Part shown: positions 1-64,000 of the stretch, piece after piece
Layout of the letters: the number at the start of each line of letters is the position of its first letter
Numbering within the stretch: position 1 is the first letter of the stretch
Virus record (IMG/VR): IMGVR_UViG_3300025120_010521
Direction: 5' to 3' (one strand)
Source: a virus
Lineage: Duplodnaviria; Caudoviricetes
DNA: 64,000 bases
Translations under genes and position numbers: made by a program
Notes under the pieces: generated by a model
Told to the model about the DNA's origin: nothing
The model's database searches: none
The model's input: the letters and a program-made list of their open reading frames with translations, nothing else

Positions 1-1716
1 TGTTGTTCTTTCTTTAACAGTAATAGTTGACCAGTTAACTGAGTCAGTATCTCTATGATCACCATAATATAATATGCTAGGTGATATATAATAGTTATCT
101 TTAGCATAAGTTACACCAGATTTCCAAGTAGTATGAGGTCTACGTTTTAACCAAGTACCTGATGAATCTTGTGCTGATGTTAGTGCTACATTGTTCACAA
201 AGCTAAAATTACCAACATAGTAAGTAAAGTCAATGTCTGCACCCTTCATATTAGATGTTCCATTACTATCATTATTATATGTTGAATTAGAGTATGTTAT
301 CATGTCTTTGATATCTGTTGAATAAAAAGCAATATCAAAATTATAAGATTTATCTTTACGATTATATCCTATTTCATTACTAACAGATTGTTCTGCTTTA
401 AGATTTACGTTACCTGTGTAACCATAGTTATCTGCACCATATAGTTCATACAGTGTTGGTGCTTTATATCCTGTTGATTGGCTTATACGAAAACCATTAT
501 ATGCCGCTCCAATTGAATATGTTGATTGACCATTTGCAATAGAATGCTCGTCATGTCTTAAACCACCTGATACAATTAGATTGTTTGTAAATGAATAATC
601 AAAGTTATGATATATCCCTGTTACTGATGCTGACTTATCAACTGTAGAATTATAGCTACCTGTATTATTAAAGTCTACATCAAATCCAGTTACATCTACA
701 CCTGTTTTAGTTGATACTTGGTCTGAACTTGTTACCCAATCTAAAGATCCATGTGTTGCAACAGAATCATAATTGTCTATTTCTGTTCCATTTACGTATT
801 GTCTATCCCATATAGTATGATCAAAAACTGTTTTTATCTTTCCATACTTTACATCAGTTGACGTCTGCATTTGTCCAAAGTAAAACTTTGTTTCATTTGT
901 ATAATCCAAATCATCTGCACCTGAGGCATCAATATCTGCGTTGGTTGTATTTGTTACTCCTGTAAATTTAATCTTTGTATCATCAAGAGTTATAACATGC
1001 CCAACATTAAATCCTAATACATCATATCCATCTGGTTCTGTACCCTGTGGATAAACTGATATCCCGTCTGACTGTTCTGTATATATTCCAAAGGTAAAAA
1101 AATCTTTACCATATGTATAAGCCATAGTGTTTGTGTCATGTGACCCTTGCGATATGGAAAATTCATTTTGTTTGTAATCAGATGTTTGTATATCAACAAC
1201 ACCACCAACTGCATTTGGTCCGTAGTTAGTACTCATTGGTCCTGTGTATAAATGTAAACCATCTGCAAAATGTATGTTAATGTTGTTTAAATCTGTAGCA
1301 CCATTTGTTGTTGAGTAGTCTGTAATTGCTGACCCGTTAATTGTTACAAGTGTGTGATTTGAATTTGTTCCTCTTGTAAATAACGATGTCTGTTGTCCTG
1401 CTGGTCCTGATCTAACTGCATTAAAACTTGGTGCGTCTTCTAATGCTTCTGATAATATGCTAGACCCTTCTTTCTTTTCATCGTCTAACCAAATAAACGA
1501 ATCTGTGTATATTCTATCTGCTTTTTGAGATGCTGTCATTGTATGAAATATTGGTATGTTTATTACCAATGAATCACATACAATTGTTTCATCCATCATT
1601 TCTTCCCAATAACATTCATTCTCTCCTGCTTTTGCAGGTTTAATTAAAAATGCTACAAATAATATTGCTAATACTATTATTCCTCTTCCGATGTTTCTTT
1701 TGCCTTCACTATTCAT
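1..1716 (-). CDS. TonB-dependent outer-membrane receptor, BtuB (cobalamin)-like; 3' end runs off the window
   Basis: Not in the ORF track (no stop in window). Manual translation from ATG 1716: MNSEGKRNIGRGIIVLAILFVAFLIKPAKA (signal peptide), then plug motif SGPAGQQTSLFTRGTNSNHTLVTINGSAITD...YGPNAVGGVVDI, followed by Tyr/Asn/Thr-rich beta-barrel-type sequence. Confidence 0.85.
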   Translation of the reverse strand, partial: MNSEGKRNIGRGIIVLAILFVAFLIKPAKAGENECYWEEMMDETIVCDSLVINIPIFHTMTASQKADRIYTDSFIWLDDEKKEGSSILSEALEDAPSFNAVRSGPAGQQTSLFTRGTNSNHTLVTINGSAITDYSTTNGATDLNNINIHFADGLHLYTGPMSTNYGPNAVGGVVDIQTSDYKQNEFSISQGSHDTNTMAYTYGKDFFTFGIYTEQSDGISVYPQGTEPDGYDVLGFNVGHVITLDDTKIKFTGVTNTTNADIDASGADDLDYTNETKFYFGQMQTSTDVKYGKIKTVFDHTIWDRQYVNGTEIDNYDSVATHGSLDWVTSSDQVSTKTGVDVTGFDVDFNNTGSYNSTVDKSASVTGIYHNFDYSFTNNLIVSGGLRHDEHSIANGQSTYSIGAAYNGFRISQSTGYKAPTLYELYGADNYGYTGNVNLKAEQSVSNEIGYNRKDKSYNFDIAFYSTDIKDMITYSNSTYNNDSNGTSNMKGADIDFTYYVGNFSFVNNVALTSAQDSSGTWLKRRPHTTWKSGVTYAKDNYYISPSILYYGDHRDTDSVNWSTITVKERTT

Positions 1717-2242
1717 AGAGACCTTTCCTGTTAACTACCATTAAGTAGATGTTGTGTAAAGGTCGAGATAATGCTATAGTCAGTGACACCATTAAGGCAG
1801 TATAAACAACTGTGCCTAACAGTGTATTTTGGAAAAATGGTATTGCCATTGTGTAACACATTATTAATCCTTCTAATGTGTTAGGATAGTAGTCCCACAT
1901 AATCCATACTGCAAAATTTGTTACTACAAAAAATAACACTGATGATCCTATTGTCATTATTGCTAATGGTATGTATTTGCCAAACTGCATAGCCCATCTG
2001 CTAATAACTGTGGACATTGCTATTGATCCATAAACCCAAAGCATATAAGGATGAAACCCTATAAACACATCTCCAATAAACATTGCCATTAATGGTACTG
2101 CTATTGCTATCCAACGATCGTTAACGATGTATGGTGCAAATATAGCCGCGGCCAATATTGGTGTAAAGTTTGGTGGATGTGGTATGAGTCTACCTATGGC
2201 GAGAATGCCAGAAATATATAAAAATGACAGTATAATCTTCAT
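1709..2242 (-). CDS. DUF6580-like membrane protein (putative vitamin transporter substrate component)
   Basis: RLIPHPPNFTPILAAAIF motif, ~5 hydrophobic segments, FFVVTNFAVW and AIPFFQNTL motifs; overlaps the receptor start. Confidence 0.75.
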   Translation of the reverse strand: MKIILSFLYISGILAIGRLIPHPPNFTPILAAAIFAPYIVNDRWIAIAVPLMAMFIGDVFIGFHPYMLWVYGSIAMSTVISRWAMQFGKYIPLAIMTIGSSVLFFVVTNFAVWIMWDYYPNTLEGLIMCYTMAIPFFQNTLLGTVVYTALMVSLTIALSRPLHNIYLMVVNRKGLYE

Positions 2243-2321
2243 AATAGTATTACCCCAACCTCTATTGTTAAATACGGTAAATTGTAATACTATTTATAAC
2301 ATACTTTCCAATATCTGTCAA
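2243..2321 (-). promoter_or_regulatory. Sigma70 promoter (TTGACA-N17-TATAAA) overlapping a TATAAATA box, followed by a leader hairpin covering the RBS
   Basis: tgtcaa 2316-2321, tttata 2293-2298; perfect 11-bp inverted repeat at 2243-2253 and 2284-2294. Confidence 0.7.
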
Positions 2322-2335
2322 TATGCTAAATCTAA

Positions 2336-2674
2336 CTAATTTTTTTTTCTAAAAGCGGAATTAAACATTCTATGCACGTTTTGATGAACAGCATTTTCTA
2401 GTGATTCCATATCTATATAAATTTCCATATTTACTATGTCGTGATAGCTTTCTGCAACTTTGTCCCAATCAACTTGGCCATGTACAGGAATAGTATTATA
2501 GATATCATCACTAGTCATTAGGCTTGTTGAACCATCTCTATGAAATAGTTTAATTTTATCAACAAAATTTGCTGGAATTTTTTTTGGATGTATCTCATGC
2601 ATGATACGATCAAATTCTTTGTGATCTCTATCATTTCGAGAAGGTATAAATTTTCTGTTTGAGTCTTGTGTCAT
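2336..2674 (-). CDS. hypothetical protein
   Basis: 112-aa ORF in the co-directional gene run. Confidence 0.6.
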   Translation of the reverse strand: MTQDSNRKFIPSRNDRDHKEFDRIMHEIHPKKIPANFVDKIKLFHRDGSTSLMTSDDIYNTIPVHGQVDWDKVAESYHDIVNMEIYIDMESLENAVHQNVHRMFNSAFRKKN

Positions 2675-2676
2675 AA

Positions 2677-2717: not shown

Positions 2718-2724
2718 AGTAAAC

Positions 2725-5113: not shown

Positions 5114-5224
5114 TAGAGATAAAAGTCCAAACCAACATATCCCTGTAATCAAAGCAATTTTAACTGTACCTTTAATTCCAAAAGCCCAAAGGAAGATTGC
5201 AAGGAAAAATAAAAACCAAAACAT
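5096..5224 (-). CDS. small hydrophobic protein, 42 aa (not in ORF track)
   Basis: MFWFLFFLAIFLWAFGIKGTVKIALITGICWFGLLSLLVIFS; TAATG coupling to the upstream stop. Confidence 0.45.
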   Translation of the reverse strand: MFWFLFFLAIFLWAFGIKGTVKIALITGICWFGLLSLLVIFS

Positions 5225-6447
5225 TATATATTTTCGTAATGTGTTGTTATTCCAAATGGTGCTTCAAGGTCTTTATCATGATTTGAATGTATCACCCAAA
5301 GTGTATCACAATAATTTTCATCACCCCAAGATCCCCAAGGATAACCATCTGTGAATACAATTAGCTTTTTAGGTTGTACCCCTTCTTCTTTCATCCAAGA
5401 CCAATTAGCTTCAAATTCTGTACCACCAAAGCCACCTGGCTTGTAATCTGTAATATCTCTATCTGGTGTAAACACTTCTGGATTATGAACTTCTGTATCA
5501 AAACTCCATACATGAACTTTGTAATCTTGGAATGAATCCATAATACCTTTTACTTCACCTAAGAAAATATTTAATTGTTTTTCACTAATTGACCCTGATG
5601 TATCAATAGCAACACATACGTCAACTGCTGGCTCTGGTTGTAAGCCAGGAAGTATAGCATTTACTGTCCAACCCTTACGTGAAGGTCTCATAAATGAATA
5701 GTCTGATTTTACAACTGATGTTATATGTTGATCTAATAAAGAACGCCAATCCATTTTAGGCTCAGTCATATTTTTAATTAAACGTTCAACACCTTTAGGT
5801 ACATTACCTGCTCCAGCCGCCTGTGCCGCCTGTAATACTGCATTTTTAATTTCATCTTTTAACTTGTCTTTATCTGCTTTAGACATAGCAGGCATCTTGC
5901 CTTTGCCATCTTTGCCATCACCATCTTTACCTTGTCCTTGACCTTTATCACCTTCGCCATCTAGGTGCATATCAAGAGTAACTTTGATTTCAACTTGATT
6001 CTTTTTTAGTTCAGTGTATATTTCATCTGAGTTTTTATCGTAATACTTTGAATCATGTAATCCTTCTTTAGGCATTTTGCCTAACCCTTCACGAACTAAC
6101 TGACCATTAATTACATAGTCTGTTGCCATATTCCAAATTTGAGGTTGTCTACCTTCTCTACGTTCCATATGATCATATACACAATGCATTACTTCATGCC
6201 CAATAAGGAAATCAAGTTCTTCTGAACTTAATGGCGAAATAAATTCTCTATTGTAAAATAAATGCATTCCATCAGTGGCCGCAGTAGGACACCAATCATC
6301 AGCATTTTTAAGTTTTAATCTTGTTGCAAGATTACCAAAGAACGGATGTTTTAATAAAAGACGTACTCTACTTTGAACTATTCTTTCACGTATTTCGTGA
6401 TCTTCTTGAATATTAATCTTTTTCTTTATTGCAGTTTTTGTTGCCAT
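5224..6447 (-). CDS. Metallopeptidase-like + vWA domain protein (DUF2201-type MoxR partner)
   Basis: HEVMH (HExxH), DTSGS MIDAS motif, FTDGY. Confidence 0.85.
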   Translation of the reverse strand: MATKTAIKKKINIQEDHEIRERIVQSRVRLLLKHPFFGNLATRLKLKNADDWCPTAATDGMHLFYNREFISPLSSEELDFLIGHEVMHCVYDHMERREGRQPQIWNMATDYVINGQLVREGLGKMPKEGLHDSKYYDKNSDEIYTELKKNQVEIKVTLDMHLDGEGDKGQGQGKDGDGKDGKGKMPAMSKADKDKLKDEIKNAVLQAAQAAGAGNVPKGVERLIKNMTEPKMDWRSLLDQHITSVVKSDYSFMRPSRKGWTVNAILPGLQPEPAVDVCVAIDTSGSISEKQLNIFLGEVKGIMDSFQDYKVHVWSFDTEVHNPEVFTPDRDITDYKPGGFGGTEFEANWSWMKEEGVQPKKLIVFTDGYPWGSWGDENYCDTLWVIHSNHDKDLEAPFGITTHYENI

Positions 6448-9591: not shown

Positions 9592-10683
9592 CTAAACGTC
9601 TACGATTAGTTTGCCGTATCTCTTATAAAACTCCTTAAAGCTCTTTAGCTCTTTAGGGGAAAACGGTAGTTGGTGATTCTTAAGTGCAATTCTGGCACCA
9701 AGTACTACCATTTCAGTTTCAAAATTGTCCATCATATATTGTAAGAAACAATCTGCCATTTTGTGCCAAGGCGACATTTTTTTATTTTTTTGTGCCTTTT
9801 CACATTCGTCTTTTAATTCATAACACAATGAAGTAATTAATGAATACATTGCACTTACTTCTTTTGTATCAAGACTTTTAACTTTACCATTTAAAATATC
9901 AGTTGGATTAGGTAACTTACCTGCCACTTCTCTGTGAGCATTAAATTTAACTGCAAGACCTTCTCCTACTGCACCAGCAATAATATCTGTAAGTTGTGAA
10001 CCTTGTAAGTCATTATCTTCAAGCATATCACTTACAAATGACCAACTTCTTGGTGTAGCAAATGCTCTTGATGAACTTCTTGGATCAAAGTCATACAAAT
10101 CATTTTTAGCAAATGTTAAGTAACCAACTACATCTGCATGGATGTCATGTTTGGTTGCCCAATCTTGCCAGTCTTCGAAGTTAACTGCCATTTCAATATG
10201 CAACATTCTATTAGCAAGTGGACTAGGCATTCTATAAGTAACACCTCTATCACTTTCTCTGTTACCAGCCGCCACAATTGATACTCCTTCCGGCAATTTA
10301 TAAGTACCAATTCTTCTATTAAGAATTAACTGATACGCCGCCGCCTGTACACTTTGTGGTGCCGCATTAATTTCATCTAAGAACAAGATGTCTGTTGCTT
10401 TTGGATCACTTGGAAGATCAACTGGTGGTGCCCAATCCATTTTATTTTCTTTAGAATTAAAATATGGAATACCACGTAAGTCAGTTGGTTCTAGAAGAAG
10501 CAATCTAAGATCGATTACACTTCTATTAGTGTTCTTACCAATTTGATCAATAATTTCTGATTTACCAATGCCTGGAGGACCCCATAGCATAACTGGTCTT
10601 TGTTTTTTAATACAAGCAAGAACCTCTGTCATTACGTCACCGGGTCTTACTGTTCTAGTGTCTGTAGTTGTTGTTTTTACCAT
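9592..10683 (-). CDS. MoxR-family AAA+ ATPase
   Basis: Walker A GPPGIGKS, Walker B LFLDEIN, AAGNR, PLANR. Confidence 0.9.
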   Translation of the reverse strand: MVKTTTTDTRTVRPGDVMTEVLACIKKQRPVMLWGPPGIGKSEIIDQIGKNTNRSVIDLRLLLLEPTDLRGIPYFNSKENKMDWAPPVDLPSDPKATDILFLDEINAAPQSVQAAAYQLILNRRIGTYKLPEGVSIVAAGNRESDRGVTYRMPSPLANRMLHIEMAVNFEDWQDWATKHDIHADVVGYLTFAKNDLYDFDPRSSSRAFATPRSWSFVSDMLEDNDLQGSQLTDIIAGAVGEGLAVKFNAHREVAGKLPNPTDILNGKVKSLDTKEVSAMYSLITSLCYELKDECEKAQKNKKMSPWHKMADCFLQYMMDNFETEMVVLGARIALKNHQLPFSPKELKSFKEFYKRYGKLIVDV

Positions 10684-13508: not shown

Positions 13509-16500
13509 TTAGCCTCCCATTACCACTTGTACCCATGCATGAGTGACTGTACCAAACGATCTTGATGCTCCTGAGTCACCTTCTGACGCTTTGATTTTTA
13601 TTGAACCAAATGATCCAAATGCTGTTGGTGATCCTGATGATCCTCCGCCTGGTATTTCTCTCAATGTAATGTCTTTGTTTAGAGGCATCATTGTGTATTT
13701 GTTTGATGCATACACATAACCATATAGTGTAAGACTTGCTGGTGGATAACTGTAACCTGTAAAGTTAATTGTTATGTCACCACCTGATGCTGAATCAATT
13801 GATACACTTGATATACCTGATGATGTATCTGTTATACTTGATAATGTACCATTTGTTGCATAATTAATTTTAAACATTTCAACTGCTGTTGAACCACCGC
13901 CACCTGATATAGTTGTAAAAGATAATTGTCCTGAACCATTTGTTACAAGTGCCTGTCCTGATGTACCATCTGTGATAGCCGCCGGTGATGCTGTAGCAAA
14001 CACTGGTAAGTGTCCTGAAGCATCTGGTAAGTTGATTGTTCTGTCTGCTGTTGGATCAACTGCTTGAAGTTTTGTTTCGTTGTTGTCTGCTGTTGAACCT
14101 TCAAAAGCAATACTTGTAATACTGTTAATGTCTGATGCTAAACTTAATGTAACATTGTTTGCGGCAATGCCTGCATTAATTTGTCCAGTAGTTCCTAAGA
14201 ACGTTAGTGTTTCTGTAGCAGTGTTGAATGTGTGTGTACCAGTGTTACCTGCAAGGCCGAATGTTCCGCCTCCGCCACCATCTGTTTTCCATTTAAATGA
14301 AGTTGATGAATGATCGTAGTATAGTATCTTGCCATCATCACCTCCAGCTACTGCGTCAACATCACTTAATGTTGTTAAGCCTGCCGCCGCTATTCTGGCA
14401 TCTGCTCTTGCGTTCGTGTAGTATAAGTTAGAACCTTCTGCTACATCACCTGTGTCTTTTGCCGCTAGTCTTGTGTCAAATGCTGAGTTGTCAAATAACG
14501 TTGTGTTACCTGCAAGTGCTGTTGTAGAACTTGTACCTAATTGTAATGAGTCTGTAATTCCGTAACCTGCTATTGTACTTGGCTTGCCTGTTAGTGAAGC
14601 AAATGATTGTGCTGGTACTGATGTTAAGTAACCTGCACTTGCATGATTGCCCCAACCATATGCTGTATCCCAATTACTTGAGTTTGATGTTGATGAATCA
14701 ACATAAGCCTTGATTGATTGTTGCGTTGCTACTTTTGTATTTGAATCAGACGCCATATTGTCTTCATCTAGTGTTGCCGCTGTAATTCTAGCATCTGCTC
14801 TTACGTCAGTATAGTATAGGTTTGTGCCTTCACTTAAATTTGTTGTTGTTGATGAAGTTTCATCTAATAACTTGATCCAGTTACCACCGTGTGCAAAATA
14901 ACCTTTGCCTGTGCCGTGTACGTGTGCAAACATACCGTGATATGTTGAAGCATTTGGTAATGCGGCCTCATTTGAATATGGTGCCGTCCATTTTAAGTAA
15001 TCGTTATCTGAACCATCTATTTTAACGTTTGCAGAAAGTATAACATCACCTGTACCATGTGTTGCTAGTGTAATGTTACCATTTGATGCTGTTGTTGAAA
15101 TTGATAATGCACCTGCCGCCGACACACTTGGTGAAGCACCTGCTGTTGTTACTGACCCTACTGTTAATGCATCTGTTGTTTTGTTGTAAGTAAAGCCACC
15201 ATCAGCACCCATTACACCACTGTCATTAAACTGTACGTATGTATCTGAACCAGCCGCCGAAGCCGCCGTTACTGTTACGTTCTCCCATTTAGATGTTCCT
15301 GTGTTGTATTTCAAGAACTGGTTGTTTTGAAGTGATGCTATCGTAACATCATTCATTTCACTTAATTCGTTTTCACTTGCTACCTGTGAGTCAACGTATG
15401 CTTTAACTGATTGCTGTGATGGAAGTCTAGTAGCACTGTCTGATGCCATGTTGTCTTCATCAATCAATGCATTTGTAATTCTTGCATCTGCTCTTGCATC
15501 TGTGTAGTATAAGTTAGTACCTTCTGATAGGTTAGTTGTTGATTTAGTTGCTAATCTTGTATCAAATGCCGAGTTTGCTCTAGCATCTGTATAGTAAAGA
15601 TTTGAACCTTCAGTTAGGTTGGCTGTTGTTTTAGTTGCCAATCTGTTATCAAAATCTGTGTTTGTGTAGCCTGCGTTAGTAACCCAAGCATAGTCCGAAC
15701 CATTCCAACTCAATACATATCCTGATGTTGGATTTGATTGATTTAGATGTGCATCAATTGACGCATTAAGGTCTGTGATTCCGTAACCAGATATCGTAGT
15801 TGGCTTGCCTGTTAGTGAAGCAAATGATTGAGCTGGTACTGAAGTCAAGTAACCCGCACTTGCGTGGTTGCCCCAACCGTATGCTGTGTCCCAATTCGTA
15901 ACTTTTGCACCTGTTACACCTGCGTTAGTAATTCTTGCGTCTGCTCTTGCATTAGTAAAGTATAAGTTTGAACCTTCTGCTACATCACCTGTGTCTTTAC
16001 TTGCTAATCTTGTGTCAAATGCTGAGTTGTCAAATAATGTTGGTTTGCCAGTTAAGTCGGCATAAGCACCACTGAATGAATCTGTAATTCCATAACCTGC
16101 TATCGTAGTTGGTTTACTTGTTAAACTAGCAAAAACTCCGTCAAACAATGCTGTATTACCTGCAAGTGCTGTTGTGGCACTTGTACCTATTTGTAATGAA
16201 TCTGTAATTCCATAACCTGCTATCGTAGTTGGTTTACCTGTTAGTGAAGCAAATGACTGAGCTGGTACACTTGTTAAGTATCCTGCACTTGCATGGTTAC
16301 CCCAACCATATGCTGTAATAAATTGTCCTAGGTTTGTATCAGTTAATACATTCGTACCCATATCAATTGTGTTACCATTAGCATCTAATGTTCCACCAAG
16401 TTGTGGAGTAGTATCATTAACTATATCTGTAATACCACCTGTACCATTTGCCACCCAAGCATAGTCTGAACCGTTCCAAGAAAGAACGTAACCACTTGTT

Positions 16501-18473
16501 GGACCACTTTGGTTTAGGTGTGCATCAACATCACTGTTAGTATAAGAACTTCCTGATGCATCTACTTTCCATTTAAATGAAGTTGATGAATGATCATAGT
16601 ATAAAACTTTTCCATCGTCGCCTGCCAATACTGCATCAACGTTTGATAAATCTGTTAGTGATGCCGCTTGTACTCTAGCATCTGCTCTTGCGTTTGTATA
16701 ATATAAATTTGTTGCTTCTGGAATATCTGCTGTTGATACTTGGTTTGCACCTGTACCAAAATCAATATGCGTGTCATTAATTGAGTCTGCCGCAATTGAT
16801 GTTAAGTAACCTGCACTTGCATGATTACCCCAACCATATGCTGTGTTCCAGTTTGCTGAACCTAATGCTAAAACTCTTGCGTTTACTCTTGCATCAGTAT
16901 AGTAAAGGTTTGACCCTTCTGTTAAATTTGTTGTAGACTTACTTGCTAGTCTTGTATCAAAATCTGAATCAGTATAACCTGCGTTAGTTACCCAAGCATA
17001 ATCTGATCCATTCCAACTTAATACATATCCTGAAGTTGGATTTGATTGATTTAAATGTGTGTCTACATCTGAGTTCGTATAACCTGCTGGCATATTTGTA
17101 AGTGCTGAACCATCCACTGCTGGTAGTTTAGCTGAACCATCTAGTTGTACAATTTTACCTGCACTTGTACCAACGTCAACGTTTAATGTTGCTGAACCCG
17201 ATGTTGCACCGCCTGTTAAACCTGTGCCGGCAACAACTGCTGTAATATCTCCTGCACCTGTGCTTGATGGTGCCCATCTACTGTTTCCAGAATCCCATGC
17301 AAGTACTTCTCCATTGTTTGGAGCCGCTGTGTGTACATTTGATAAATCACTTATCTGTGCCGCACCAATACGTGCATCTGCTCTTGCATTTGTATAATAT
17401 AAATTTGTACCCTCTGATACATCTGAAGTTGACTTGCCTGATAGTCTTGTATCAAATGTAGTATTAAAATCTGCTGTTGCTAGTTTTGTTGCAATTGAAT
17501 TTGTTATTGTTGTTGAAAAGTTTGCATCATCACCTAGCGCCGCCGCTAATTCGTTTAATGTATCTAATGTGCCTGGAGCTGAATCAACAAGTGCATCAAT
17601 TTTTGCCTGTGCTCTTGCATCTGCTCTTGCATCTGTATAATATAAATTTGTACCTTCAGCAACGTCTGTTGTAGTTAAAGTATCAAACTCTATTGCGTTT
17701 GCACCTGAATTAACTTTTAAATATTTTCCTGCGTCACCTGTAAAGTTACCTGGAGTATCTGATAGACCAACGAAAGTAGATGAACCACCTCCACCGCCAC
17801 CTGAGTCAACACCAATTTCCCAATTAGTTGTTGATGAGTTATATTTTAAAACTGAACCGTTTACTGCACCTGCTACATCTACGTCACCTATGTTTGCAAT
17901 TGAATCAATTGATCCTGCCACTGAAGCTCTACCATAAAAATTATCTGCATAAATGTTTAACCATTTGTATGAGTTAGAACCTAATGAGTATGTACTGTCT
18001 GTGTCTGGTAATTGGTGTGCATTATTTTTTAATGTATTTGCATCAACTTCTGCTTTTGAATAAACTGATAAATTTGTTCTTGCTGTTGCTAAATTTGTAA
18101 CTGATGCTAAATTGTCTGATTTTCTTAAAAAGTCTGAAGCCGCTACACCACCTAATTTACCTGCGTCAACATTGGCATTAAGTTGTAGTGTTAAATCGTT
18201 TGAATTTGATATAACAGTTATACCTGAATCTACATTTCCTATTATTGATTTTAACTGTAGGTTATCACTTGATTTACTTGTGAATAAACCAGAACCTGTA
18301 CCTAAATTTAGTGCTGTTGTATCATTTGATGCTGTAATAGTAATATTGTTACTATCAGCTGTTAGTGTTACATTTGTACCTGCAACAAGTGATTTAAATT
18401 GTAGATCATCACCTACTTTTTGTGCAAAAATCCCTTGTCCTGTACCTAAGTTTGACGCTGTGTTATCAGACAT
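13509..18473 (-). CDS. long tail-fibre-like protein with modular internal repeats
   Basis: 1654 aa, Gly/Thr/Ala/Ser-rich; late promoter TAAATA and SD upstream. Confidence 0.75.
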   Translation of the reverse strand: MSDNTASNLGTGQGIFAQKVGDDLQFKSLVAGTNVTLTADSNNITITASNDTTALNLGTGSGLFTSKSSDNLQLKSIIGNVDSGITVISNSNDLTLQLNANVDAGKLGGVAASDFLRKSDNLASVTNLATARTNLSVYSKAEVDANTLKNNAHQLPDTDSTYSLGSNSYKWLNIYADNFYGRASVAGSIDSIANIGDVDVAGAVNGSVLKYNSSTTNWEIGVDSGGGGGGSSTFVGLSDTPGNFTGDAGKYLKVNSGANAIEFDTLTTTDVAEGTNLYYTDARADARAQAKIDALVDSAPGTLDTLNELAAALGDDANFSTTITNSIATKLATADFNTTFDTRLSGKSTSDVSEGTNLYYTNARADARIGAAQISDLSNVHTAAPNNGEVLAWDSGNSRWAPSSTGAGDITAVVAGTGLTGGATSGSATLNVDVGTSAGKIVQLDGSAKLPAVDGSALTNMPAGYTNSDVDTHLNQSNPTSGYVLSWNGSDYAWVTNAGYTDSDFDTRLASKSTTNLTEGSNLYYTDARVNARVLALGSANWNTAYGWGNHASAGYLTSIAADSINDTHIDFGTGANQVSTADIPEATNLYYTNARADARVQAASLTDLSNVDAVLAGDDGKVLYYDHSSTSFKWKVDASGSSYTNSDVDAHLNQSGPTSGYVLSWNGSDYAWVANGTGGITDIVNDTTPQLGGTLDANGNTIDMGTNVLTDTNLGQFITAYGWGNHASAGYLTSVPAQSFASLTGKPTTIAGYGITDSLQIGTSATTALAGNTALFDGVFASLTSKPTTIAGYGITDSFSGAYADLTGKPTLFDNSAFDTRLASKDTGDVAEGSNLYFTNARADARITNAGVTGAKVTNWDTAYGWGNHASAGYLTSVPAQSFASLTGKPTTISGYGITDLNASIDAHLNQSNPTSGYVLSWNGSDYAWVTNAGYTNTDFDNRLATKTTANLTEGSNLYYTDARANSAFDTRLATKSTTNLSEGTNLYYTDARADARITNALIDEDNMASDSATRLPSQQSVKAYVDSQVASENELSEMNDVTIASLQNNQFLKYNTGTSKWENVTVTAASAAGSDTYVQFNDSGVMGADGGFTYNKTTDALTVGSVTTAGASPSVSAAGALSISTTASNGNITLATHGTGDVILSANVKIDGSDNDYLKWTAPYSNEAALPNASTYHGMFAHVHGTGKGYFAHGGNWIKLLDETSSTTTNLSEGTNLYYTDVRADARITAATLDEDNMASDSNTKVATQQSIKAYVDSSTSNSSNWDTAYGWGNHASAGYLTSVPAQSFASLTGKPSTIAGYGITDSLQLGTSSTTALAGNTTLFDNSAFDTRLAAKDTGDVAEGSNLYYTNARADARIAAAGLTTLSDVDAVAGGDDGKILYYDHSSTSFKWKTDGGGGGTFGLAGNTGTHTFNTATETLTFLGTTGQINAGIAANNVTLSLASDINSITSIAFEGSTADNNETKLQAVDPTADRTINLPDASGHLPVFATASPAAITDGTSGQALVTNGSGQLSFTTISGGGGSTAVEMFKINYATNGTLSSITDTSSGISSVSIDSASGGDITINFTGYSYPPASLTLYGYVYASNKYTMMPLNKDITLREIPGGGSSGSPTAFGSFGSIKIKASEGDSGASRSFGTVTHAWVQVVMGG
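14281..17670 (-). repeat. dispersed coding repeats inside the fibre gene
   Basis: 9x ExxNLY(Y/F)T(D/N)xR; 4x TAYGWGNHASAGYLTS; 4x KP(T/S)TI(A/S)GYGITD; 3x HLNQSxPTSGYVLSWNGSDYAWV; 2x DEDNMASDS..QQSxKAYVD; 2x GDDGKxLYYDHSSTSFKWK. Confidence 0.9.
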
Positions 18474-18529: not shown

Positions 18530-18907
18530 TTAATGGTTCAAAAGAATTGAAGCAACTGCGCCTGCTGTAGCATTAAAAACTAATGCTTTAATATATACAT
18601 AGTTTCCAGTAAATGTGTATGCTGTAGTGCCTGTGTAAGTAGTAAACGACTGTAGGTTAGCACCATTTAGTGGTATTCTAAACCAATCATCAGCTGTTGG
18701 TGTTGTAGCTAATGTGGCTTCTAGAGCTAATGATCCCGTAAATACGTTACCTTTAAATGCGACTGTATGTAATCCGTCTGTAAATCCGTAATATGAATCT
18801 GCTGGAATGTTTGCTGATGTTATACTTGTTCCTGTATAACTCCATGGCAATGAAATTGAATTTCCTGCACTATCTTTTGCTAACATTTGTATACTGGTTC
18901 TTGACAT
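18530..18907 (-). CDS. hypothetical late (probably structural) protein
   Basis: 125 aa; TAAATA 5 nt before ATG. Confidence 0.6.
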   Translation of the reverse strand: MSRTSIQMLAKDSAGNSISLPWSYTGTSITSANIPADSYYGFTDGLHTVAFKGNVFTGSLALEATLATTPTADDWFRIPLNGANLQSFTTYTGTTAYTFTGNYVYIKALVFNATAGAVASILLNH

Positions 18908-46333: not shown

Positions 46334-46940
46334 TAGGATCGTGTGTAAGATTAGACATCTGTTCTAATCTAGTTGTTGGATATTTGTCTCTGTTTTTAAG
46401 AAATTCTTCGTGATGTATCATTTTACCATTAACAAGGAATCCCCAATGATCACCTTCTGTTTTTTTACCCATAAAAAATATACTCCAACAAGGAATTTCA
46501 TTGCCATTTTCATCTTTGGCTAATTCTAAATAGTGTAAATCTTCTGCTTTTCTAAATCTTATACTGCCAGGACCCCTCCAAAATTTACCTTTAGGAGTAT
46601 GTTCCCAATATCCACCTTTTAATATTATAGCACCCCAATTCCAAGGATGACTATGTAGTATTGGTTCATCACCTAACATCACTTTGTGTAATGTAAAGTT
46701 AAAAGGAAAGTTTTTTCTATCTTTTAAAAACAAATAGTATCTCACAAGATACTCTCGTGTATTATCTCTGTTGTAAATAATTCTTTTTCTATCTTTAAAT
46801 AATGTTGATATCAATAACACTGCAAATACTCCCACACATGCAATAAACATAATTGTTGTTTTAAATACCTTGACAACTGTTTCTGCTACATCTACTTTTG
46901 AAACTATTTCTTCTGCTTTAAACCAAATATCTTTGATCAT
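46320..46940 (-). CDS. putative cupin-fold protein
   Basis: LHKV...LHSHPW...GGYWE...HYLEL His pattern. Confidence 0.5.
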   Translation of the reverse strand: MIKDIWFKAEEIVSKVDVAETVVKVFKTTIMFIACVGVFAVLLISTLFKDRKRIIYNRDNTREYLVRYYLFLKDRKNFPFNFTLHKVMLGDEPILHSHPWNWGAIILKGGYWEHTPKGKFWRGPGSIRFRKAEDLHYLELAKDENGNEIPCWSIFFMGKKTEGDHWGFLVNGKMIHHEEFLKNRDKYPTTRLEQMSNLTHDPIAHC

Positions 46941-47863
46941 GTTCCTATCGCATTACCAAAAAGATAAACGTGAACTCTCGCCGCGACATTGTAACCACGT
47001 TTGAAAGCCTTTTCGGCAACCTTTCCTGCACCTGCTGTTTGTTCTTCTTCTCTTGCACCTGTAGGCATAACCCATACTGGCCAATCAACACCTTGTGCTT
47101 TAAAAAGTTTAATTACTTCTTCCATTTCTTCCCACTCTCTATCATCAGGACCTACCACAAACTTTAATTGTCCTTTGCTAGAAAGTTTTCTATACTCTGC
47201 CACAATCTCAGGCTTGATTGCTTTTTCTCTTTTCTCACCGGATACTGTAAACAGTTTAGGACTACAACTAAAGAATATTTCTGTATCAATTCTGTTAACC
47301 CAATCAATAAATGGTTGTCTAAGTTTTTGTGTGCCATTAGTTTCAAATGTCATCGATCCAGGCAAGTTACCTTGTCTTTCAAGTTCTTCATATATGCCTA
47401 TGGTTGCTGTTTGTCCTGTAACCATTAATGGCTCTCCACCTGTGATACACAAATGTTGACTTTGTCCTGTTACTGGGTGTTTAAATAATCCTTGTGGATT
47501 ACTTTCATTCTTCATTATATCAACTATTTTGTTTGCCATCACAGTTGGTGTTTCTTGACCCATCAGCTCTTTAAACTTCTTAGCCCATGTGTAACTTGAA
47601 TCACAACCTTTGTCCCAAACAGGCAAGTCTTCAACTTTGTCTACACTAGATACATCAAAATTTTCAAATGGCAAATCATATGTGTCTGGGTTGGTTGGAT
47701 CTATTTGCCCAAACCCATTGCATTGCAAATTGCACAAGAAGAAACGTATCCATGCTGTTGGAACACCTGTGTAATGTCCTTCACCTTGAATACTGTGAAA
47801 TATTTCAGAATAATAGAACTTCTTTTCTACAGTTTTACCAAACTCATGTTGTGCTAATGCCAT
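46937..47863 (-). CDS. queE: QueE-like 7-carboxy-7-deazaguanine synthase (radical SAM)
   Basis: SEIFHSIQGEG..TG.P..W.RF, CNLQC...GCDS, ITGGEP, ETNG, SPKL. Confidence 0.85.
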   Translation of the reverse strand: MALAQHEFGKTVEKKFYYSEIFHSIQGEGHYTGVPTAWIRFFLCNLQCNGFGQIDPTNPDTYDLPFENFDVSSVDKVEDLPVWDKGCDSSYTWAKKFKELMGQETPTVMANKIVDIMKNESNPQGLFKHPVTGQSQHLCITGGEPLMVTGQTATIGIYEELERQGNLPGSMTFETNGTQKLRQPFIDWVNRIDTEIFFSCSPKLFTVSGEKREKAIKPEIVAEYRKLSSKGQLKFVVGPDDREWEEMEEVIKLFKAQGVDWPVWVMPTGAREEEQTAGAGKVAEKAFKRGYNVAARVHVYLFGNAIGT

Positions 47864-50741: not shown

Positions 50742-51428
50742 CTACCTTGGAGCAAATTCTTGTTGTAATTTAATATTGTCCATAAACTCTTTTTTAGTTC
50801 CTTCAATATTTTTAAAATCACCTCTTAACACTGTGGTTTGTGTTAAACTACTGTGTGCTTTAATACCTCTGTTTTCACAGCAACCATGTGTTGCTTGTAC
50901 ATACACACCAACGTGTTCACTGCCTGTTTGCTTTTGAATTGCGTTAGCAATCATAACATTAAGTTCTTCTTGTAGTGTTCCACGTTTTGCACACCATTGT
51001 GCAATTCTTGTGTACTTGCTTAAACCTAATAGTTTAGGACCAGCAATGATACCAATGTATGCTACACCAGACACTGGCTGGTGATGATGTGAACAAACAC
51101 TTTTAAGTTCACTTCTTACAACAAGCATACCTTCATATCCATTTTCAATGTAGTTAGGAAATGCACTTGGATTAGGCATGTCTTCATATCTGCCACTCAT
51201 GATTTCGTTGATGTACATTTTTGCCATACGCCTTGCAGTATCTTTGCTGTTAGGATCTGTTTCAGTATCTATTAGTAAACTTTGTAGTACATTTTCAAAA
51301 GCAGGAACTGCCTCATCAATTAGTTGTTGTTTTTCACCTGGCTCAATATATTTAGAGATATTATCATTAGCCCAGTATCTTGTGTTGTTATCTTTTAGTC
51401 TCTGTAGAATTTTATCTTTTATTTTCAT
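50742..51428 (-). CDS. folE: GTP cyclohydrolase I; likely start 51428
   Basis: TARRMAKMY, CSHHHQP, GLSK..RI, RGTLQE, HGC...RG. Confidence 0.95.
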   Translation of the reverse strand: MKIKDKILQRLKDNNTRYWANDNISKYIEPGEKQQLIDEAVPAFENVLQSLLIDTETDPNSKDTARRMAKMYINEIMSGRYEDMPNPSAFPNYIENGYEGMLVVRSELKSVCSHHHQPVSGVAYIGIIAGPKLLGLSKYTRIAQWCAKRGTLQEELNVMIANAIQKQTGSEHVGVYVQATHGCCENRGIKAHSSLTQTTVLRGDFKNIEGTKKEFMDNIKLQQEFAPR

Positions 51429-51434
51429 TACCAT

Positions 51435-51844: not shown

Positions 51845-52907
51845 AATTACTAATAGTATTTACTAAATTATTTGCAGAGAAATACGTATCAGTTAATTTT
51901 TGCTCTAAATCTTTTAATTTTGGCAACTTATTATCATAATTCTGCATATCATTTTTAATCATATCAACTAGCTTATATTTGTGTATTTCATAACTGGCAT
52001 AAGAACTAGTCCAAGTTGGATCATATTTCCAAATATCATCATACATTTCCGTATAACTTAATCTATCAGGAACTAATGGCATTGCACCAACTAGTATTCC
52101 TTCGTATGGTGATATACCTAATGTTTCTTGTGTATTTGCTGAGAACACCATTTTTGCTTCTCCAAGTAAAGTATGATATTCATCTTTAGTTAATTGTTCA
52201 TCTTGACACACAATAAATTCATACTGTGGTAAATGTTTTGCTAGGTCTCTAAATATTTGTGGTTGTTTTTCAGGAGCAATTCTATGTGGAAATAAAATTA
52301 AATCACGTTTTTTCATTCCATTATATTTTTTAAGAGTATCTTTCATATACTCCATTGGCCATCCACTTTGTATAATTTTATCATTTACACTACGGACTTT
52401 ATGTGATTTGCCAAATAATCTTACGTGAAATTCTGTTGCAAAATAGTTGTGGTCAAAACATTCAAACATTGATCTTTCTGCATGTCTTACCCATGGAGCA
52501 TCTCCAATCAATCTACCTAAAAAGTCTGCTGGATCATATGAGCCGGCATGCCATAGACCATGTGTGATAACTTTGATTCCAAGTAGTTCAGACATATACT
52601 TAACATTAATAATACCAGGATGCCAAGCATCAGTAAAAATAATATGGTCGCCATCTTTAACTTCGCCTTCAGTAAAGGCTCGTGATAGTTTTTCCATTTG
52701 TGTTGATTTATAAATATTTGTTCCACCAAAGTTTAAAAAAGCACCTGGTGTTGTTGCAGGTGGAATATCGTCAGCACCGTCAATAACTCTAACTAAAAAT
52801 CCTTCATCATTTAATAATTTAGGAACGTGTGTTTTCCACTGACAAGTATATCTTGTTTCTACTGATTCTAAATCTACTATCCAAACTTTTTGTATATCTA
52901 TTTTCAT
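51783..52907 (-). CDS. GT-B glycosyltransferase (GT4-like, resembling the QTMAN/GTDC1-DUF3524 group)
   Basis: FPHRIAPEKQP, ETLGISPYE (EX7E), GAMPLVPDRLSYTEM. Confidence 0.8.
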   Translation of the reverse strand: MKIDIQKVWIVDLESVETRYTCQWKTHVPKLLNDEGFLVRVIDGADDIPPATTPGAFLNFGGTNIYKSTQMEKLSRAFTEGEVKDGDHIIFTDAWHPGIINVKYMSELLGIKVITHGLWHAGSYDPADFLGRLIGDAPWVRHAERSMFECFDHNYFATEFHVRLFGKSHKVRSVNDKIIQSGWPMEYMKDTLKKYNGMKKRDLILFPHRIAPEKQPQIFRDLAKHLPQYEFIVCQDEQLTKDEYHTLLGEAKMVFSANTQETLGISPYEGILVGAMPLVPDRLSYTEMYDDIWKYDPTWTSSYASYEIHKYKLVDMIKNDMQNYDNKLPKLKDLEQKLTDTYFSANNLVNTISNYGKQENKETKEKNRKISLTV

Positions 52908-54403: not shown

Positions 54404-54760
54404 TTAAAATGTAGCAACGCCGCCGTCCTGAAGATCATCTGGTTTGTCATTAGATTTACCAAGAATGCCTTTTGGGTCAGCAACACGAAGATCAAACTCT
54501 TCTCCATCATCTTCAACTTGCACGCCTTTTGTCCAACGACCATGTTCCATTAATACATAATCACCAGGTTGTACCCAATCAATTTCAGGACCAACAGCAT
54601 ATACTTCTGCCCAACGTGGTCTAATTCCATGTCCGCCATCTGAAATTTTATCTGCAGATGGAAGTATAATTCCACCTTTGGATTTCCGCATACCTTGATC
54701 AATACTTTTAACCAAGATTTTATTTCTCAAAGGACGTATTTTACCTTTTGTTACGTGCAT
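54404..54760 (-). CDS. groES: GroES-like co-chaperonin
   Basis: IRPLRNKILV, KSKGGIILP, AVGP. Confidence 0.88.
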   Translation of the reverse strand: MHVTKGKIRPLRNKILVKSIDQGMRKSKGGIILPSADKISDGGHGIRPRWAEVYAVGPEIDWVQPGDYVLMEHGRWTKGVQVEDDGEEFDLRVADPKGILGKSNDKPDDLQDGGVATF

Positions 54761-55735: not shown

Positions 55736-56107
55736 TTAAGCTTCGCTAACTCGCTGATTCCACTTTTGTGTTAAGTTGCTTACCCAGTTTGTTTTAACTG
55801 CTTGTACACAGGCACCATATGTACATCCTGCTTTTTTGTATTTTTTGTACAATTTTTCTGCTTCTAGTATAATGCTTTGTTTTTCTAAATGTTTAGCATA
55901 TTGATCTTTAGACTTTTGATCTCTACGTCCGGCCAATTCTCTATAAAAGTTTTCATGTGCTGTCATGCTTCTAATTGTTTGCATATCAACAAATATAAAC
56001 TTACGTCTATCTCTTTTTATTGCATTTGTGATTTTTCGGCTTGGTCGTCCAGTCGTTCCACCATTGGAAGTTTTTTTTACTCCAGAACCTGAATTGCCTT
56101 TTGCCAT
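55736..56107 (-). CDS. hypothetical basic protein
   Basis: 123 aa; TAAATA 6 nt before ATG. Confidence 0.6.
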   Translation of the reverse strand: MAKGNSGSGVKKTSNGGTTGRPSRKITNAIKRDRRKFIFVDMQTIRSMTAHENFYRELAGRRDQKSKDQYAKHLEKQSIILEAEKLYKKYKKAGCTYGACVQAVKTNWVSNLTQKWNQRVSEA

Positions 56108-58158: not shown

Positions 58159-59635
58159 TCCACTTATTCAACAATTTAATACCCCATCCTGTAGCACCAC
58201 CACTTGCTGTCATTGACCCTTTATCATTCCAAGTAACTCCTGCTATATCAATGTGTGTCCAAGGAACATCATTTACAAACCTCTGTAAAAATTGTGCCGC
58301 TGTTGTTGAACTTGCTTCGCCGCCTTTACCAACATTATGCATGTCAGCAATTGTTGAATCAACGTATTTGTCGTATCTTTCTCCAATTGGATCGCATGGT
58401 AAACGCCATACTTTTTCATCTACTTTATGTCCTGCATCAATAAGTTGATTGCTTAAATCATCATTGTTTGAAAATATGCCAGCAAGTTGATCACCAAGTG
58501 CAATTGAAATTGCTCCGGTTAATGTTGCTAGATTAATCATTGTTTTTGGCTTATATGTTTTTTGTGTGTACCATAAACAGTCTGCTAGAACTACTCTACC
58601 CTCAGCATCTGTATTATCAATTTCAATAGTTTGCCCACTCATTGAGTTGATTACATCTCCAGGCTTATATGCATTACTAGACACCATATTTTCTACTAGC
58701 CCAATAACACCAACTGCGTTAATAGGTAGGTTACGTTTTGCAATACTGATCATTGTACCAACAACCACTGCTGAACCACCCATATCATATTTCATGTCTT
58801 TCAAGCCTCTAGATGGTTTAATTGAATATCCACCAGTATCAAATGTAACTCCTTTACCAACAAAGGCCCTAGGTGCATCACCTTTTTTGCCTTTCATCCA
58901 TTCCATTACAACCATTTTAGATTCTCTAGCACTACCTTGGCCAACTGCCAATAGTGCTTCAGCACCCATTTCTTTTAGTTCTTTTTCACCATATACTTTT
59001 ACTTTGAGTCCTAGTGCTTCTAATCCTTTAACACGTTCAGCATAAGATTCAGGATACAGTACATTTGAAGGCTCTGAAATTAAATCTTTTGCAAATGCTG
59101 TGCCTTCAATTACTGCGTCTTTGTGTGCATACTCTTCTTTTACTTTTTTTAAGTCAGCACCTTCTTGACATATATCAACTTCAAATAATGTTTCTTCTTT
59201 GTCTTTTTTAGTAAAGTATTTGTCAAACTTATATTCTTTTAACTGCATACCAAAAGCAACATTAGTAGATGATGGTAGTACTTCTTTGTCAACAAATGCA
59301 AGTACACGACCTTGTGTGCCACGTTCTTTTAATTTACTATAAATTGCTCCACCTACTTTTTCTAATTTAGCATCATCTAATTTAACAGGATCTCCTACAC
59401 TAACAAACAATGCATCATGGCAAGGCAAGTTGTTAGATGTAATAAAAAAACTATCTAAAAATTTACCTTTAAAATTATTGTGTGTAATTGTTTCGCTTAA
59501 TAATCCATCAGTGCCTTCATCTAGTATTGATGATGAATGAGATAATTGTACTGCATCGTCTTTTGTATAAAGTAAATGTACTTCGCAAGTACTTTCGCCA
59601 CTTGATTCTATATCGTTAATAAAATCTATTTTCAT
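58139..59635 (-). CDS. pepA: leucyl aminopeptidase (M17)
   Basis: GKGVTFDTGG, MKYDMGG, NTDAEGR, ATLTGA. Confidence 0.95.
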   Translation of the reverse strand: MKIDFINDIESSGESTCEVHLLYTKDDAVQLSHSSSILDEGTDGLLSETITHNNFKGKFLDSFFITSNNLPCHDALFVSVGDPVKLDDAKLEKVGGAIYSKLKERGTQGRVLAFVDKEVLPSSTNVAFGMQLKEYKFDKYFTKKDKEETLFEVDICQEGADLKKVKEEYAHKDAVIEGTAFAKDLISEPSNVLYPESYAERVKGLEALGLKVKVYGEKELKEMGAEALLAVGQGSARESKMVVMEWMKGKKGDAPRAFVGKGVTFDTGGYSIKPSRGLKDMKYDMGGSAVVVGTMISIAKRNLPINAVGVIGLVENMVSSNAYKPGDVINSMSGQTIEIDNTDAEGRVVLADCLWYTQKTYKPKTMINLATLTGAISIALGDQLAGIFSNNDDLSNQLIDAGHKVDEKVWRLPCDPIGERYDKYVDSTIADMHNVGKGGEASSTTAAQFLQRFVNDVPWTHIDIAGVTWNDKGSMTASGGATGWGIKLLNKWIDTNGS

Positions 59636-60713: not shown

Positions 60714-61135
60714 ACTTTTCTACCTGCTGTTTTTAAATCTTCTTTTGCTACTACCATATATGGACCTTTATTATAAGCTGGAACAATAGAGTATTGTTTA
60801 CTAACTTCAAGTCTTTCTTTGGTTTCTTTCCAACTACGTGTACCACCTCTAGTAATTCTATTGCTCAACTTAGGTTGTGGTAATGTTTGCCTAGTCATTG
60901 GTTCTGTAGTAGTTGGGTTACCTAAACTCATTTTCTGTTGTGGTTGTTTTATAGGTTTCCATTTACCTTGAACATAATCAACATACTCTTCAAAAGTCAT
61001 TTTTGACAGTTTCATTTTTGCTAAGAACTTATTATGTTTGCGAAAGCCGTCCATATACGTATGTAACGGTTTTGGCTTTTTTTTGCGCCTTGTCGTATTT
61101 AGGGTAGTAAGCCCTTGTTCTAAGTGCATTGTCAT
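60710..61135 (-). CDS. hypothetical basic phage protein
   Basis: 141 aa, own sigma70 promoter. Confidence 0.6.
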   Translation of the reverse strand: MTMHLEQGLTTLNTTRRKKKPKPLHTYMDGFRKHNKFLAKMKLSKMTFEEYVDYVQGKWKPIKQPQQKMSLGNPTTTEPMTRQTLPQPKLSNRITRGGTRSWKETKERLEVSKQYSIVPAYNKGPYMVVAKEDLKTAGRKV

Positions 61136-62238: not shown

Positions 62239-62253
62239 TTTATTTGTCTCCGC

Positions 62254-62970: not shown

Positions 62971-62992
62971 TTTTATTCTTTCTTGTGTTATT

Positions 62993-63067
62993 TGGAGCGG
63001 GTAAAGGGGTTCGAACCCTTGACCTATTCGTTGGCAACGAATCGCTCTACCACTGAGCTACACCCGC
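62993..63067 (-). tRNA. tRNA-Gly (GCC), CCA encoded
   Basis: GCGGGTG TA GCTC AGTGGTA GAGC G ATTCG TTGCCAA CGAAT AGGTC AAGGG TTCGAAC CCCTT TACCCGC T CCA; own TTGACA-N17-TATTAT promoter. Confidence 0.97.
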
Positions 63068-63121
63068 CTAACATCATAATAATATAATACTTGTTTTCAT
63101 TAATTATGTCAACACCTATTA

Positions 63122-63517
63122 TTAATTTGCTAAAGGATTTGTTGCTTTTAATCTTACTTCTTCAATTTTAGAATCTTGTAATTCATTTACTTTTGATTGA
63201 ATTTCAATATCTTTTTGTGCTTCGGCCATTTCTGTCCATAGCTCTTCTACATCTGCCCAAAGTTCATTAATACCTTCGTCTGATTCAGAACTCATTTTAT
63301 CTTCAATTATTTTGATTCTATCAATTACTTCGACTCTGATGTTAGCAATTTTATCATTTACAGATGTAAGATCTACTGTTTGATTTACAATAAAATCTTT
63401 ATTTTCAATTGCTGATAGTCTTGTATTAAATTCACCCCATGCGTAGAATCCACCACCAATTGCACCTATTACACCAATAAGCGATGCATAAGTTGTTAGT
63501 TTATCAATTATTTTCAT
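63122..63517 (-). CDS. hypothetical membrane-anchored coiled-coil protein
   Basis: N-terminal TM (LIGVIGAIGGGFYAW), heptad region. Confidence 0.6.
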   Translation of the reverse strand: MKIIDKLTTYASLIGVIGAIGGGFYAWGEFNTRLSAIENKDFIVNQTVDLTSVNDKIANIRVEVIDRIKIIEDKMSSESDEGINELWADVEELWTEMAEAQKDIEIQSKVNELQDSKIEEVRLKATNPLAN

Positions 63518-64000
63518 TTCTAAGTACCTCTAATTCGGCTTGTAGCCTTGCTATATCGTTGTTTACTTTATTTACCTTTAGTTCGTGCTGTGCCACAGGA
63601 TCTGACTGTATATAAGAAGTTAATGTAACATCTTGGTATATTGACCTATTATATGCCATTAATATAGTATCTTCAGCATACCAATCTGGATTGTCTTGTA
63701 GTTTTCTTGTGTCATAAAACTGTTGGTTTGCGTATTCAGTTATGTCAGGTTGATCTTCAATCATACCTTGTAATGTTACAATTGATATAACTTTTAATTT
63801 CTGATCAAGTGTTTTTAATTTTGATTCTAATTTTTTAAGTACTTTTTCCACTTTGGCTTGAATTTCGCTAACTTCTGATTCTACACTATCGGTATCAACA
63901 CTTGCATCTGCACCATCTTGTTCATCAGTGGATGCTTCTTCGTTACCGTCTTCCACTGACTCTTCTTCATTACCAGTGGACTCTTCTTGTTCAGTTGTTT
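63504..64000 (-). CDS. acidic protein, 5'-truncated by the window edge
   Basis: Frame stays open to 64000 (TTEQEESTGNEEESVEDG...); the track start is an internal GTG. Confidence 0.65.
   Translation of the reverse strand, partial: TTEQEESTGNEEESVEDGNEEASTDEQDGADASVDTDSVESEVSEIQAKVEKVLKKLESKLKTLDQKLKVISIVTLQGMIEDQPDITEYANQQFYDTRKLQDNPDWYAEDTILMAYNRSIYQDVTLTSYIQSDPVAQHELKVNKVNNDIARLQAELEVLRNENN

Follow-up and report, generated by a model that had tools for sequence, protein, structure and literature searches.

Total absence of GCWGC and context-dependent loss of other palindromes in a clade of uncultured marine giant phages are consistent with host restriction acting around a partial guanine modification

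Why should an AT-rich phage genome that otherwise prefers GCA and GCT for alanine never use either codon in front of a second alanine? The question is raised by a 64,000-nucleotide stretch (hereafter, the window) of the virus record IMGVR_UViG_3300025120_010521 (Duplodnaviria; Caudoviricetes), for which a sequence-only reading had proposed strong selection against the pentanucleotide GCWGC (W, A or T). Both GCAGC and GCTGC are completely missing from the window, on either strand, and GCSGC (S, C or G) occurs 64 times. A maximal-order Markov model predicts 59 GCWGC sites, and 300 within-gene shuffles of synonymous codons predict 52.7 ± 3.4, with a minimum of 42; the observed zero is, thus, not near the codon-shuffled expectation but far below even the lowest shuffled count. 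These shuffle expectations are conservative, because the null retains a codon usage already shaped by avoidance. The total of GCNGC is hardly altered (63 observed versus 70 expected), and therefore the central W has been exchanged for S.

The Ala-Ala reading frame holds ca. 90% of the expected GCWGC sites. Our open reading frame (ORF) calls are crude and give 58–60 Ala-Ala dipeptides in the window, near the figure of about 50 traced by eye in the sequence-only reading; in a set of 60, the first codon is GCG in 50 cases and GCC in the other 10, and never GCA or GCT, just as had been claimed. Alanine codons with no alanine after them are GCA (811), GCT (261), GCC (72) or GCG (29), so that 92% are GCA or GCT, in agreement with the preference described for single codons. 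The five examples cited at the time are all present with the codons given:

10333–10347, minus strand: QAAAY, encoded by CAG GCG GCG GCG TAT
5812–5832, minus strand: QAAQAAG, with GCG GCA and GCG GCT
17532–17549, minus strand: LAAALG, with GCG GCG GCG
15249–15269, minus strand: TAASAAG, with GCG GCT twice
58292–58303, minus strand: TAAQ, with GCG GCA

The window is part of an uncultured marine giant T4-like phage. It has 33% G+C, with 90 of the 94 crude ORF calls on the minus strand, and contains a polymerase gene that served us as marker for the retrieval of relatives:

29298–32012, minus strand: T4-type DNA polymerase B (PolB; phrog_262, E = 4e-194)

Identity of this PolB to those of cultured jumbo phages is only ca. 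50%, the closest being Sinorhizobium phage Phosso and Agrobacterium phage Atu_ph07, and a PolB search of IMG/VR retrieved many marine relatives with 58–98% identity. One of them, G001, is complete (328,149 bp, with terminal repeats), and its PolB is 84% identical to that of the window. The window, G001 and four further relatives (G002–G005) make up the clade analysed here, with six sequences and 730 kb (666 kb for the five relatives alone), and with nucleotide identities to the window down to 77%.

There is not a single GCWGC in the 328 kb of G001, where ca. 271 are expected, nor in the 338 kb of G002–G005, and the 622 kb of pooled clade coding sequence contain none of the 515 (406 + 109) expected after codon shuffling. 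Because the sites remain at zero with identities down to 77%, their absence is maintained and not merely inherited. Across the clade, 0 of 525 Ala-Ala pairs begin with GCA or GCT, versus 80–86% in non-avoiding relatives, in the Pseudomonas jumbo phage PA5oct, in the pelagiphage HTVC008M and in a Vibrio phage. Ala-Ala dipeptides are also less frequent in the clade, with 0.71–0.89 of the composition expectation versus 1.10–1.29 in controls, a deficit that represents a small protein-level cost of the purge. The other two reading frames, with 22.6 and 25.3 GCWGC expected in a pool of five clade sequences, are likewise empty; G001 has none in its non-coding DNA (7–9 expected), and neither GCAGC nor GCTGC is present on the sense strand. 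Therefore, the effect acts on DNA and not on translation.

Depletion differs between related phages, as host restriction repertoires would. Six distant relatives (L009, L011, L017, L061, L070 and L071) contain GCWGC at the expected numbers, many other distant lineages are strongly depleted, and the purge of GCWGC is the one most widely common to the relatives. Survivors in depleted lineages outside the clade are enriched for GGCWGCC (15 of 39, versus 11 of 527 in non-avoiders).

We then evaluated other palindromes in the pooled clade coding sequence, using the codon-shuffle null and sorting sites into three classes: those with an internal G that precedes A or G in either of the two strands (a G-purine step), those with such a G just outside the site, and those with neither. 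In this last, unshielded class, the observed/expected counts were 0/115 for GCGC, 0/90 for GCWWGC, 0/106 for AAGCTT, 0/142 for CTWAG, 0/57 for CATATG, 0/30 for CGCG, 0/27 for CTGCAG, 0/26 for CAGCTG, 0/23 for GTGCAC, 0/19 for CTTAAG and 1/11 for CACGTG. Copies with a GA or GG step occur at about expectation (231/295 and 156/183 for CTWAG; 164/149 and 136/134 for CATATG). Likewise, palindromes with an internal GA or GG are in no case purged to near zero, with observed/expected ratios (O/E) of 1.06 for GATC, 0.99 for GANTC, 1.09 for GGCC, 1.14 for CCGG, 0.98 for CCWGG and 0.95 for GGWCC. When words were counted directly in the whole 730 kb, non-coding DNA included, ten of them had no fully unshielded copy. 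The window alone shows the same conditional pattern, and every survivor in it fits the G-purine rule, including the following:

17537–17540: GCGC, followed by C (GCGCc)
18558–18561: GCGC, followed by C
27943–27946: GCGC, followed by C
61085–61088: GCGC, followed by C
14582–14587: GCWWGC with g/c flanks (gGCTTGCc)
15803–15808: GCWWGC (gGCTTGCc)
52546–52551: GCWWGC (gGCATGCc)
54652–54657: the only CTGCAG in the window, followed by A, so that its terminal G is in a GA step
55738–55743: the only AAGCTT in the window, followed by C, so that a gA step lies immediately beyond the site on the opposite strand

GCWGC is the sole word purged even with a G-purine step just outside of it (0/406 and 0/109). 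Both of its Gs, on both strands, precede C, and because of this no copy can contain a G-purine step; GCSGC has a GG step in every copy. Other words that cannot be shielded (TGCA, GTAC, ACGT, CTAG, GTATAC and GTTAAC) show no purge, as would follow if the corresponding enzymes were simply missing from the hosts. Unshielded CATG, with R..Y flanks, is absent from G001, G004 and G005 and has 38–45 copies in each of the window, G002 and G003; this split within the clade indicates that the set of enemy enzymes differs between sub-lineages, and an enzyme cutting CATG seems to affect some members of the clade only. We also observed in G001 the loss of ACATGT (0 versus 62.5 expected) and a ca. 7-fold depletion of CASTG (23 versus 159), the window being depleted in neither.

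Sites where one end alone can be shielded allowed a refinement of the context. A terminal G protects when followed by A (O/E 0.67–0.77), GC (1.25) or GT (0.83), and protection is weak in the contexts GGA (0.36) and GGG (0.17); a flanking G preceded by another G gave 0/26, and sites with no G-purine step at all gave 1/310. From these survivor contexts, which are small in number, the target of the putative modification would be roughly H-G-A and H-G-G-Y. A rule limited to GG/CC steps explains GCGC, GCWWGC and GTGCAC but fails on the CTGCAG followed by A and on GCGAGC, which is not depleted, and it was therefore replaced by that of G followed by purine. We also rejected a single enzyme reading GC-W(0-2)-GC, since avoidance of GCGC and of GCWGC is separable in lineages L019 and L025, and sensitivity to the flanks is not the same for the three words. 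Tracts free of GA and GG longer than ca. 360 bases were not found in the window, G001 or PA5oct.

The sequence-only reading had also suggested that the phage modifies its G, and the window supports this at the gene level, with a protein of predicted tRNA-guanine transglycosylase (TGT) fold, FolE and a QueE-like enzyme:

26206–27732, minus strand: predicted TGT-fold (DpdA-like) protein of 508 amino acids with an invariant D-S-G-G-x-Q, candidate guanine-exchanging enzyme
50742–51434, minus strand: GTP cyclohydrolase I (FolE), with which the preQ0 pathway starts (PF01227, E = 2e-38)
46937–47863, minus strand: QueE-like radical S-adenosylmethionine enzyme of the preQ0 pathway (phrog_2076, E = 3e-54; no Pfam match)
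25585–25989, minus strand: MazG-type nucleotide pyrophosphohydrolase, adjoining the TGT-like gene (PF03819, E = 2e-7)

The gene for the 508-amino-acid protein adjoins a clamp-like gene in the window and is next to PolB in all the relatives examined. The protein has no sequence match in Pfam, PHROGs or the PDB and was identified by a fold search alone: the top 50 Foldseek hits of its AlphaFold (AF2) model (pLDDT 84, pTM 0.85) are all tRNA-guanine transglycosylase from Zymomonas (Z. mobilis), with E ~1e-8, probability 1.0 and ca. 400 aligned columns. D-S-G-G-x-Q is invariant in an alignment of 23 homologues, and we take it to resemble the TGT active-site signature. The window thus encodes, judging by fold, a predicted transglycosylase of the TGT superfamily, which differs from canonical TGT and DpdA proteins in having no Pfam match and, when structurally aligned with TGT, an identity of only ca. 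15%. Classical methylases were considered as the shield and discarded, since G001 has no methylase of the Dcm-type (PF00145) or N4/N6 (PF01555) families, the Dam-type families not having been searched.

PA5oct (Wroclawvirus) offers a positive control, because it encodes a homologue with 41% identity to the TGT-fold protein of the window:

NC_071039.1, 222985–224607 (L119:5998-7620): PA5oct gp168, annotated as hypothetical

As in the window clade, the PA5oct genes are arranged in the order PolB, clamp-like, TGT-like, QueE-like and exonuclease. The PA5oct preprint reports modified G in GA/GG motifs and DNA resistant to digestion at sites containing GA or GG, and it names only the QueE and PTPS genes; gp168 may be the guanine transglycosylase behind this modified G. 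PA5oct also shares with the clade the conditional purge of CTGCAG (0/16 unshielded versus 72/74 shielded), GTGCAC (0/12.5, with two flanked copies) and CAGCTG (1/12). Unlike the clade, it does not avoid GCWGC (257/255), GCGC or GCWWGC, so its hosts evidently lack enzymes for these three words. A phage with the modification system can therefore keep GCWGC, and the loss of this word is not a by-product of that system.

The putative target resembles those of described systems. Phage 7-deazaguanine DNA modification protects from restriction (PMC6884629), and the motifs reported for DpdA are GA and GGC in phage CAjan (PMC7544227) and GA in phage iggy (PMC10484667), the conclusion of the iggy paper adding GGT to those of CAjan (PMC10484667). 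Upon digestion of CAjan DNA, sites with Gs in GC or GT contexts remain vulnerable (PMC7544227). The window clade is like these systems in an apparent preQ0 gene set, a predicted TGT-superfamily protein and a probable target G before A or GY, and differs from the reported motifs in an apparent need for a non-G base before the target. Our literature search did not find any paper linking conditional word avoidance to a deazaguanine motif.

Together, we consider it fairly probable that the purge is explained by pressure from a host restriction enzyme of GCWGC or GCNGC type, combined with a context-limited 7-deazaguanine modification. Restriction endonucleases of the hosts would cut GCWGC, being of the TseI/ApeKI type (GCWGC), the BbvI type (GCAGC) or the Fnu4HI/Bsp6I type (GCNGC), and selection in the phage lineage would have led to the loss of every GCWGC by silent recoding. 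The phage, in turn, would replace only the Gs preceding A or G (approximately H-G-A and H-G-G-Y) with a 7-deazaguanine derivative, made via FolE, QueD, QueE and QueC-like enzymes and inserted by the divergent TGT/DpdA-like protein. The purge of GCWGC would be total because the phage's own protection could not cover any copy, and GCSGC, always with a GG step, would provide a synonymous way of encoding Ala-Ala safely. Selection against a restriction-type word, as originally proposed, is hence the best-supported reading, given that the loss is total, synonymous, independent of frame and strand, variable among lineages and accompanied by that of other palindromes; the restriction step itself we infer. 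The suggestion that the modification does not block the enzyme was close and can be refined, in that the putative modification would reach only a G preceding A or G, of which GCWGC has none.

Avoidance of short palindromes in virulent double-stranded DNA phages is reportedly the subject of classical work by Sharp in 1986, Karlin, Rocha in 2001 and Rusinov in 2018. Our case resembles classical restriction-site avoidance in that a restriction-type word is far below a codon-aware expectation, through synonymous changes and in a lineage-variable way; unlike it, the purge is absolute over 730 kb and belongs to a set of words purged only where they have no G-purine step. For restriction-site avoidance there is also a survey of host genomes (PMC4687349).

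More tentatively, and with slightly less than even confidence, we propose that the missing and surviving words reveal two things at once. One would be the motif, approximately H-G-A and H-G-G-Y, targeted by the PA5oct gp168 family, which would form a new and highly divergent group of DNA guanine transglycosylases that lacks annotation and escapes Pfam. The other would be the restriction repertoire of the uncultured marine hosts, comprising GCGC, GCNGC or GCWGC, GCNNGC, CTWAG, CATATG, AAGCTT, CGCG, CTGCAG, CAGCTG and GTGCAC, with GCWGC as the main gap in protection.

The identity of the enzymes can be narrowed to some extent. ApeKI cuts GCWGC, BbvI cuts GCAGC, and Fnu4HI and Bsp6I cut GCNGC. 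TseI recognises GCWGC (PMC6329791). The recognition words of these five type II enzymes equal or contain the purged word, although none of them was found in any candidate host of the window phage. With GCSGC shielded by its GG step, enzymes for GCNGC and for GCWGC would leave the same footprint. For the six-base enzyme, the counts in the clade pool (0/11 for GCACGC/GCGTGC versus 13/13.7 for GCGAGC/GCTCGC) hint at a GCNNGC rather than a GCWWGC type; by analogy, the five-base enemy may be of the GCNGC type, the evidence not being decisive. The sequence-only reading had pointed to host genomes and methylomes as a source of evidence; in two metaepigenome surveys, GCWGC methylation is reported only from Chloroflexi, as N4-methylcytosine (m4C) (PMC6329791; PMC8919816), and 5-methylcytosine is poorly detected by SMRT sequencing.

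Several observations weigh against the combination of restriction and partial modification. A host with a cognate GCWGC-cutting enzyme was not found in our candidate-host searches, a PolB scan of 185,579 species genomes for the host returned only a 552-bp fragment of a metagenome-assembled genome, and GCWGC is not avoided in five marine phage-host pairs available in culture, with phages of SAR11, OM43, Prochlorococcus, Synechococcus and Vibrio. The six clade sequences are mutually related, so that their zero counts are not independent. TCGA contains GA and is, nevertheless, moderately depleted (O/E 0.67). The Pfam model for TGT fails to match the 508-amino-acid protein and, in G001, where QueD is clear (E = 1e-14), the QueC-like matches are weak, both lying outside the window. 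We infer a modified G in the virion DNA of the clade from the survivor contexts and from the digestion of DNA of PA5oct, which bears the homologue. Finally, HTVC008M keeps GTATAC only if flanked by g/c (0/23 versus 14/12) and CTGCAG mainly with GG; as it does so without the gene set, something else may underlie the protection ascribed to a G immediately beyond the site.

This last behaviour speaks for a rival explanation, in which restriction sites are avoided without any connection to DNA modification. The hosts would have a GCWGC enzyme along with a number of others, and the G-purine rule would reflect longer or odd enzyme specificities or some other property of T4-like phage DNA; it is further favoured in that modification in the window phage is a prediction from sequence. 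We nevertheless consider it rather unlikely. About a dozen words obey one context rule, and the motif derived from them matches both the measured DpdA motifs and the PA5oct digestion data. In addition, GA contexts protect only in genomes with the gene set, namely the clade and PA5oct. The TGT-like gene, canonical TGT and FolE are all missing from the phages HTVC008M, Melnitz, P-SSM2 and S-MbCM7, and the first three of these heavily purge palindromes containing GA or GG, with counts in the set of 82/323 and 24/373 for GATC, 2/196 for TCGA, 0/27 for GAATTC, 0/38 for TCTAGA, 0/62 for GGWCC and 0/52 for CCGG. Avoidance of GCWGC is seen in none of the four, and likewise not in a Vibrio jumbo phage. 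As separate observations, HTVC008M has no copies of GAATTC, AGATCT, TCTAGA, TGATCA, TCATGA, TTCGAA or ATCGAT, and the first 100 kb of P-SSM2, from Prochlorococcus, contain no GCGC, CCGG or CGCG.

Less probable still, and in our view quite doubtful, is a phage-encoded GCWGC nuclease without a methylase, aimed at host or competitor DNA, from which the phage would be safe by having no sites. It would account for a GCWGC purge that is absolute clade-wide whatever the flank, unlike that of other words, and that is the most widespread among relatives. Against it, no candidate gene was found; the one ORF with a suggestive label is the following:

5224–6447, minus strand: ORF labelled HNH endonuclease by PHROG (phrog_1314), corresponding in Pfam to a DUF2201 metallopeptidase with a VWA-like domain

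The phage has no match to the Bsp6I family, but the control genomes are silent too, which makes this negative uninformative. The GGCWGCC survivors retained by related lineages fit partial protection from an outside enzyme, and the words purged alongside GCWGC differ from one sub-lineage to another, in the way that repertoires of hosts would. Independently of this, the phrog_1314 label of the ORF at 5224–6447 looks wrong, and a MoxR-type ATPase adjoins at 9592–10683.

Two other explanations can be practically discarded. Erosion of a C5-methylated site through deamination of 5-methylcytosine, also contemplated in the sequence-only reading and recommended by GCWGC being a known methylation motif, carried as m4C in Chloroflexi (PMC6329791; PMC8919816), does not hold: the words that C-to-T change would produce (GTWGC, GCWGT and the complements of both) occur at about expectation and GCSGC is enriched 1.5–4 times, the replacement being instead from W to S at the central base; the Ala-Ala frame could not have been emptied in this way, because C-to-T changes alter the protein; G001 has neither of the methylase types searched for; and a loss of 100% is beyond what decay alone gives. 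An equally negligible prospect, a translational codon-pair effect in which ribosome or tRNA supply disfavours GCA or GCT before an Ala codon, would suit the concentration of expected sites in the Ala-Ala frame but is refuted by the emptiness of the other two frames (48 expected) and of non-coding DNA, by the absence of both GCAGC and GCTGC from the sense strand, and by the free use of GCW-GCN in relatives and in PA5oct, whose codon usage is similar.

Site avoidance and protection by deazaguanines are known separately; what is useful here is to have both together in one genome. As the phage appears to purge exactly those words that its partial modification would not cover, the pattern predicts the modification motif and points to a candidate enzyme, from a TGT-fold family missed by current annotation and common to PA5oct, a therapeutic candidate phage. 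It also lists restriction specificities relevant in the hosts of giant phages that abound in the ocean. Should it be validated, conditional word avoidance could be used to screen uncultured viruses, from sequence alone, for DNA modification that depends on context.

The window also contains, on the minus strand, a PrmA/TRM5-like methyltransferase gene (22085–23026), followed by an ORF without a family match (21085–22092, minus strand); the product of the former probably methylates protein or RNA, and not DNA.

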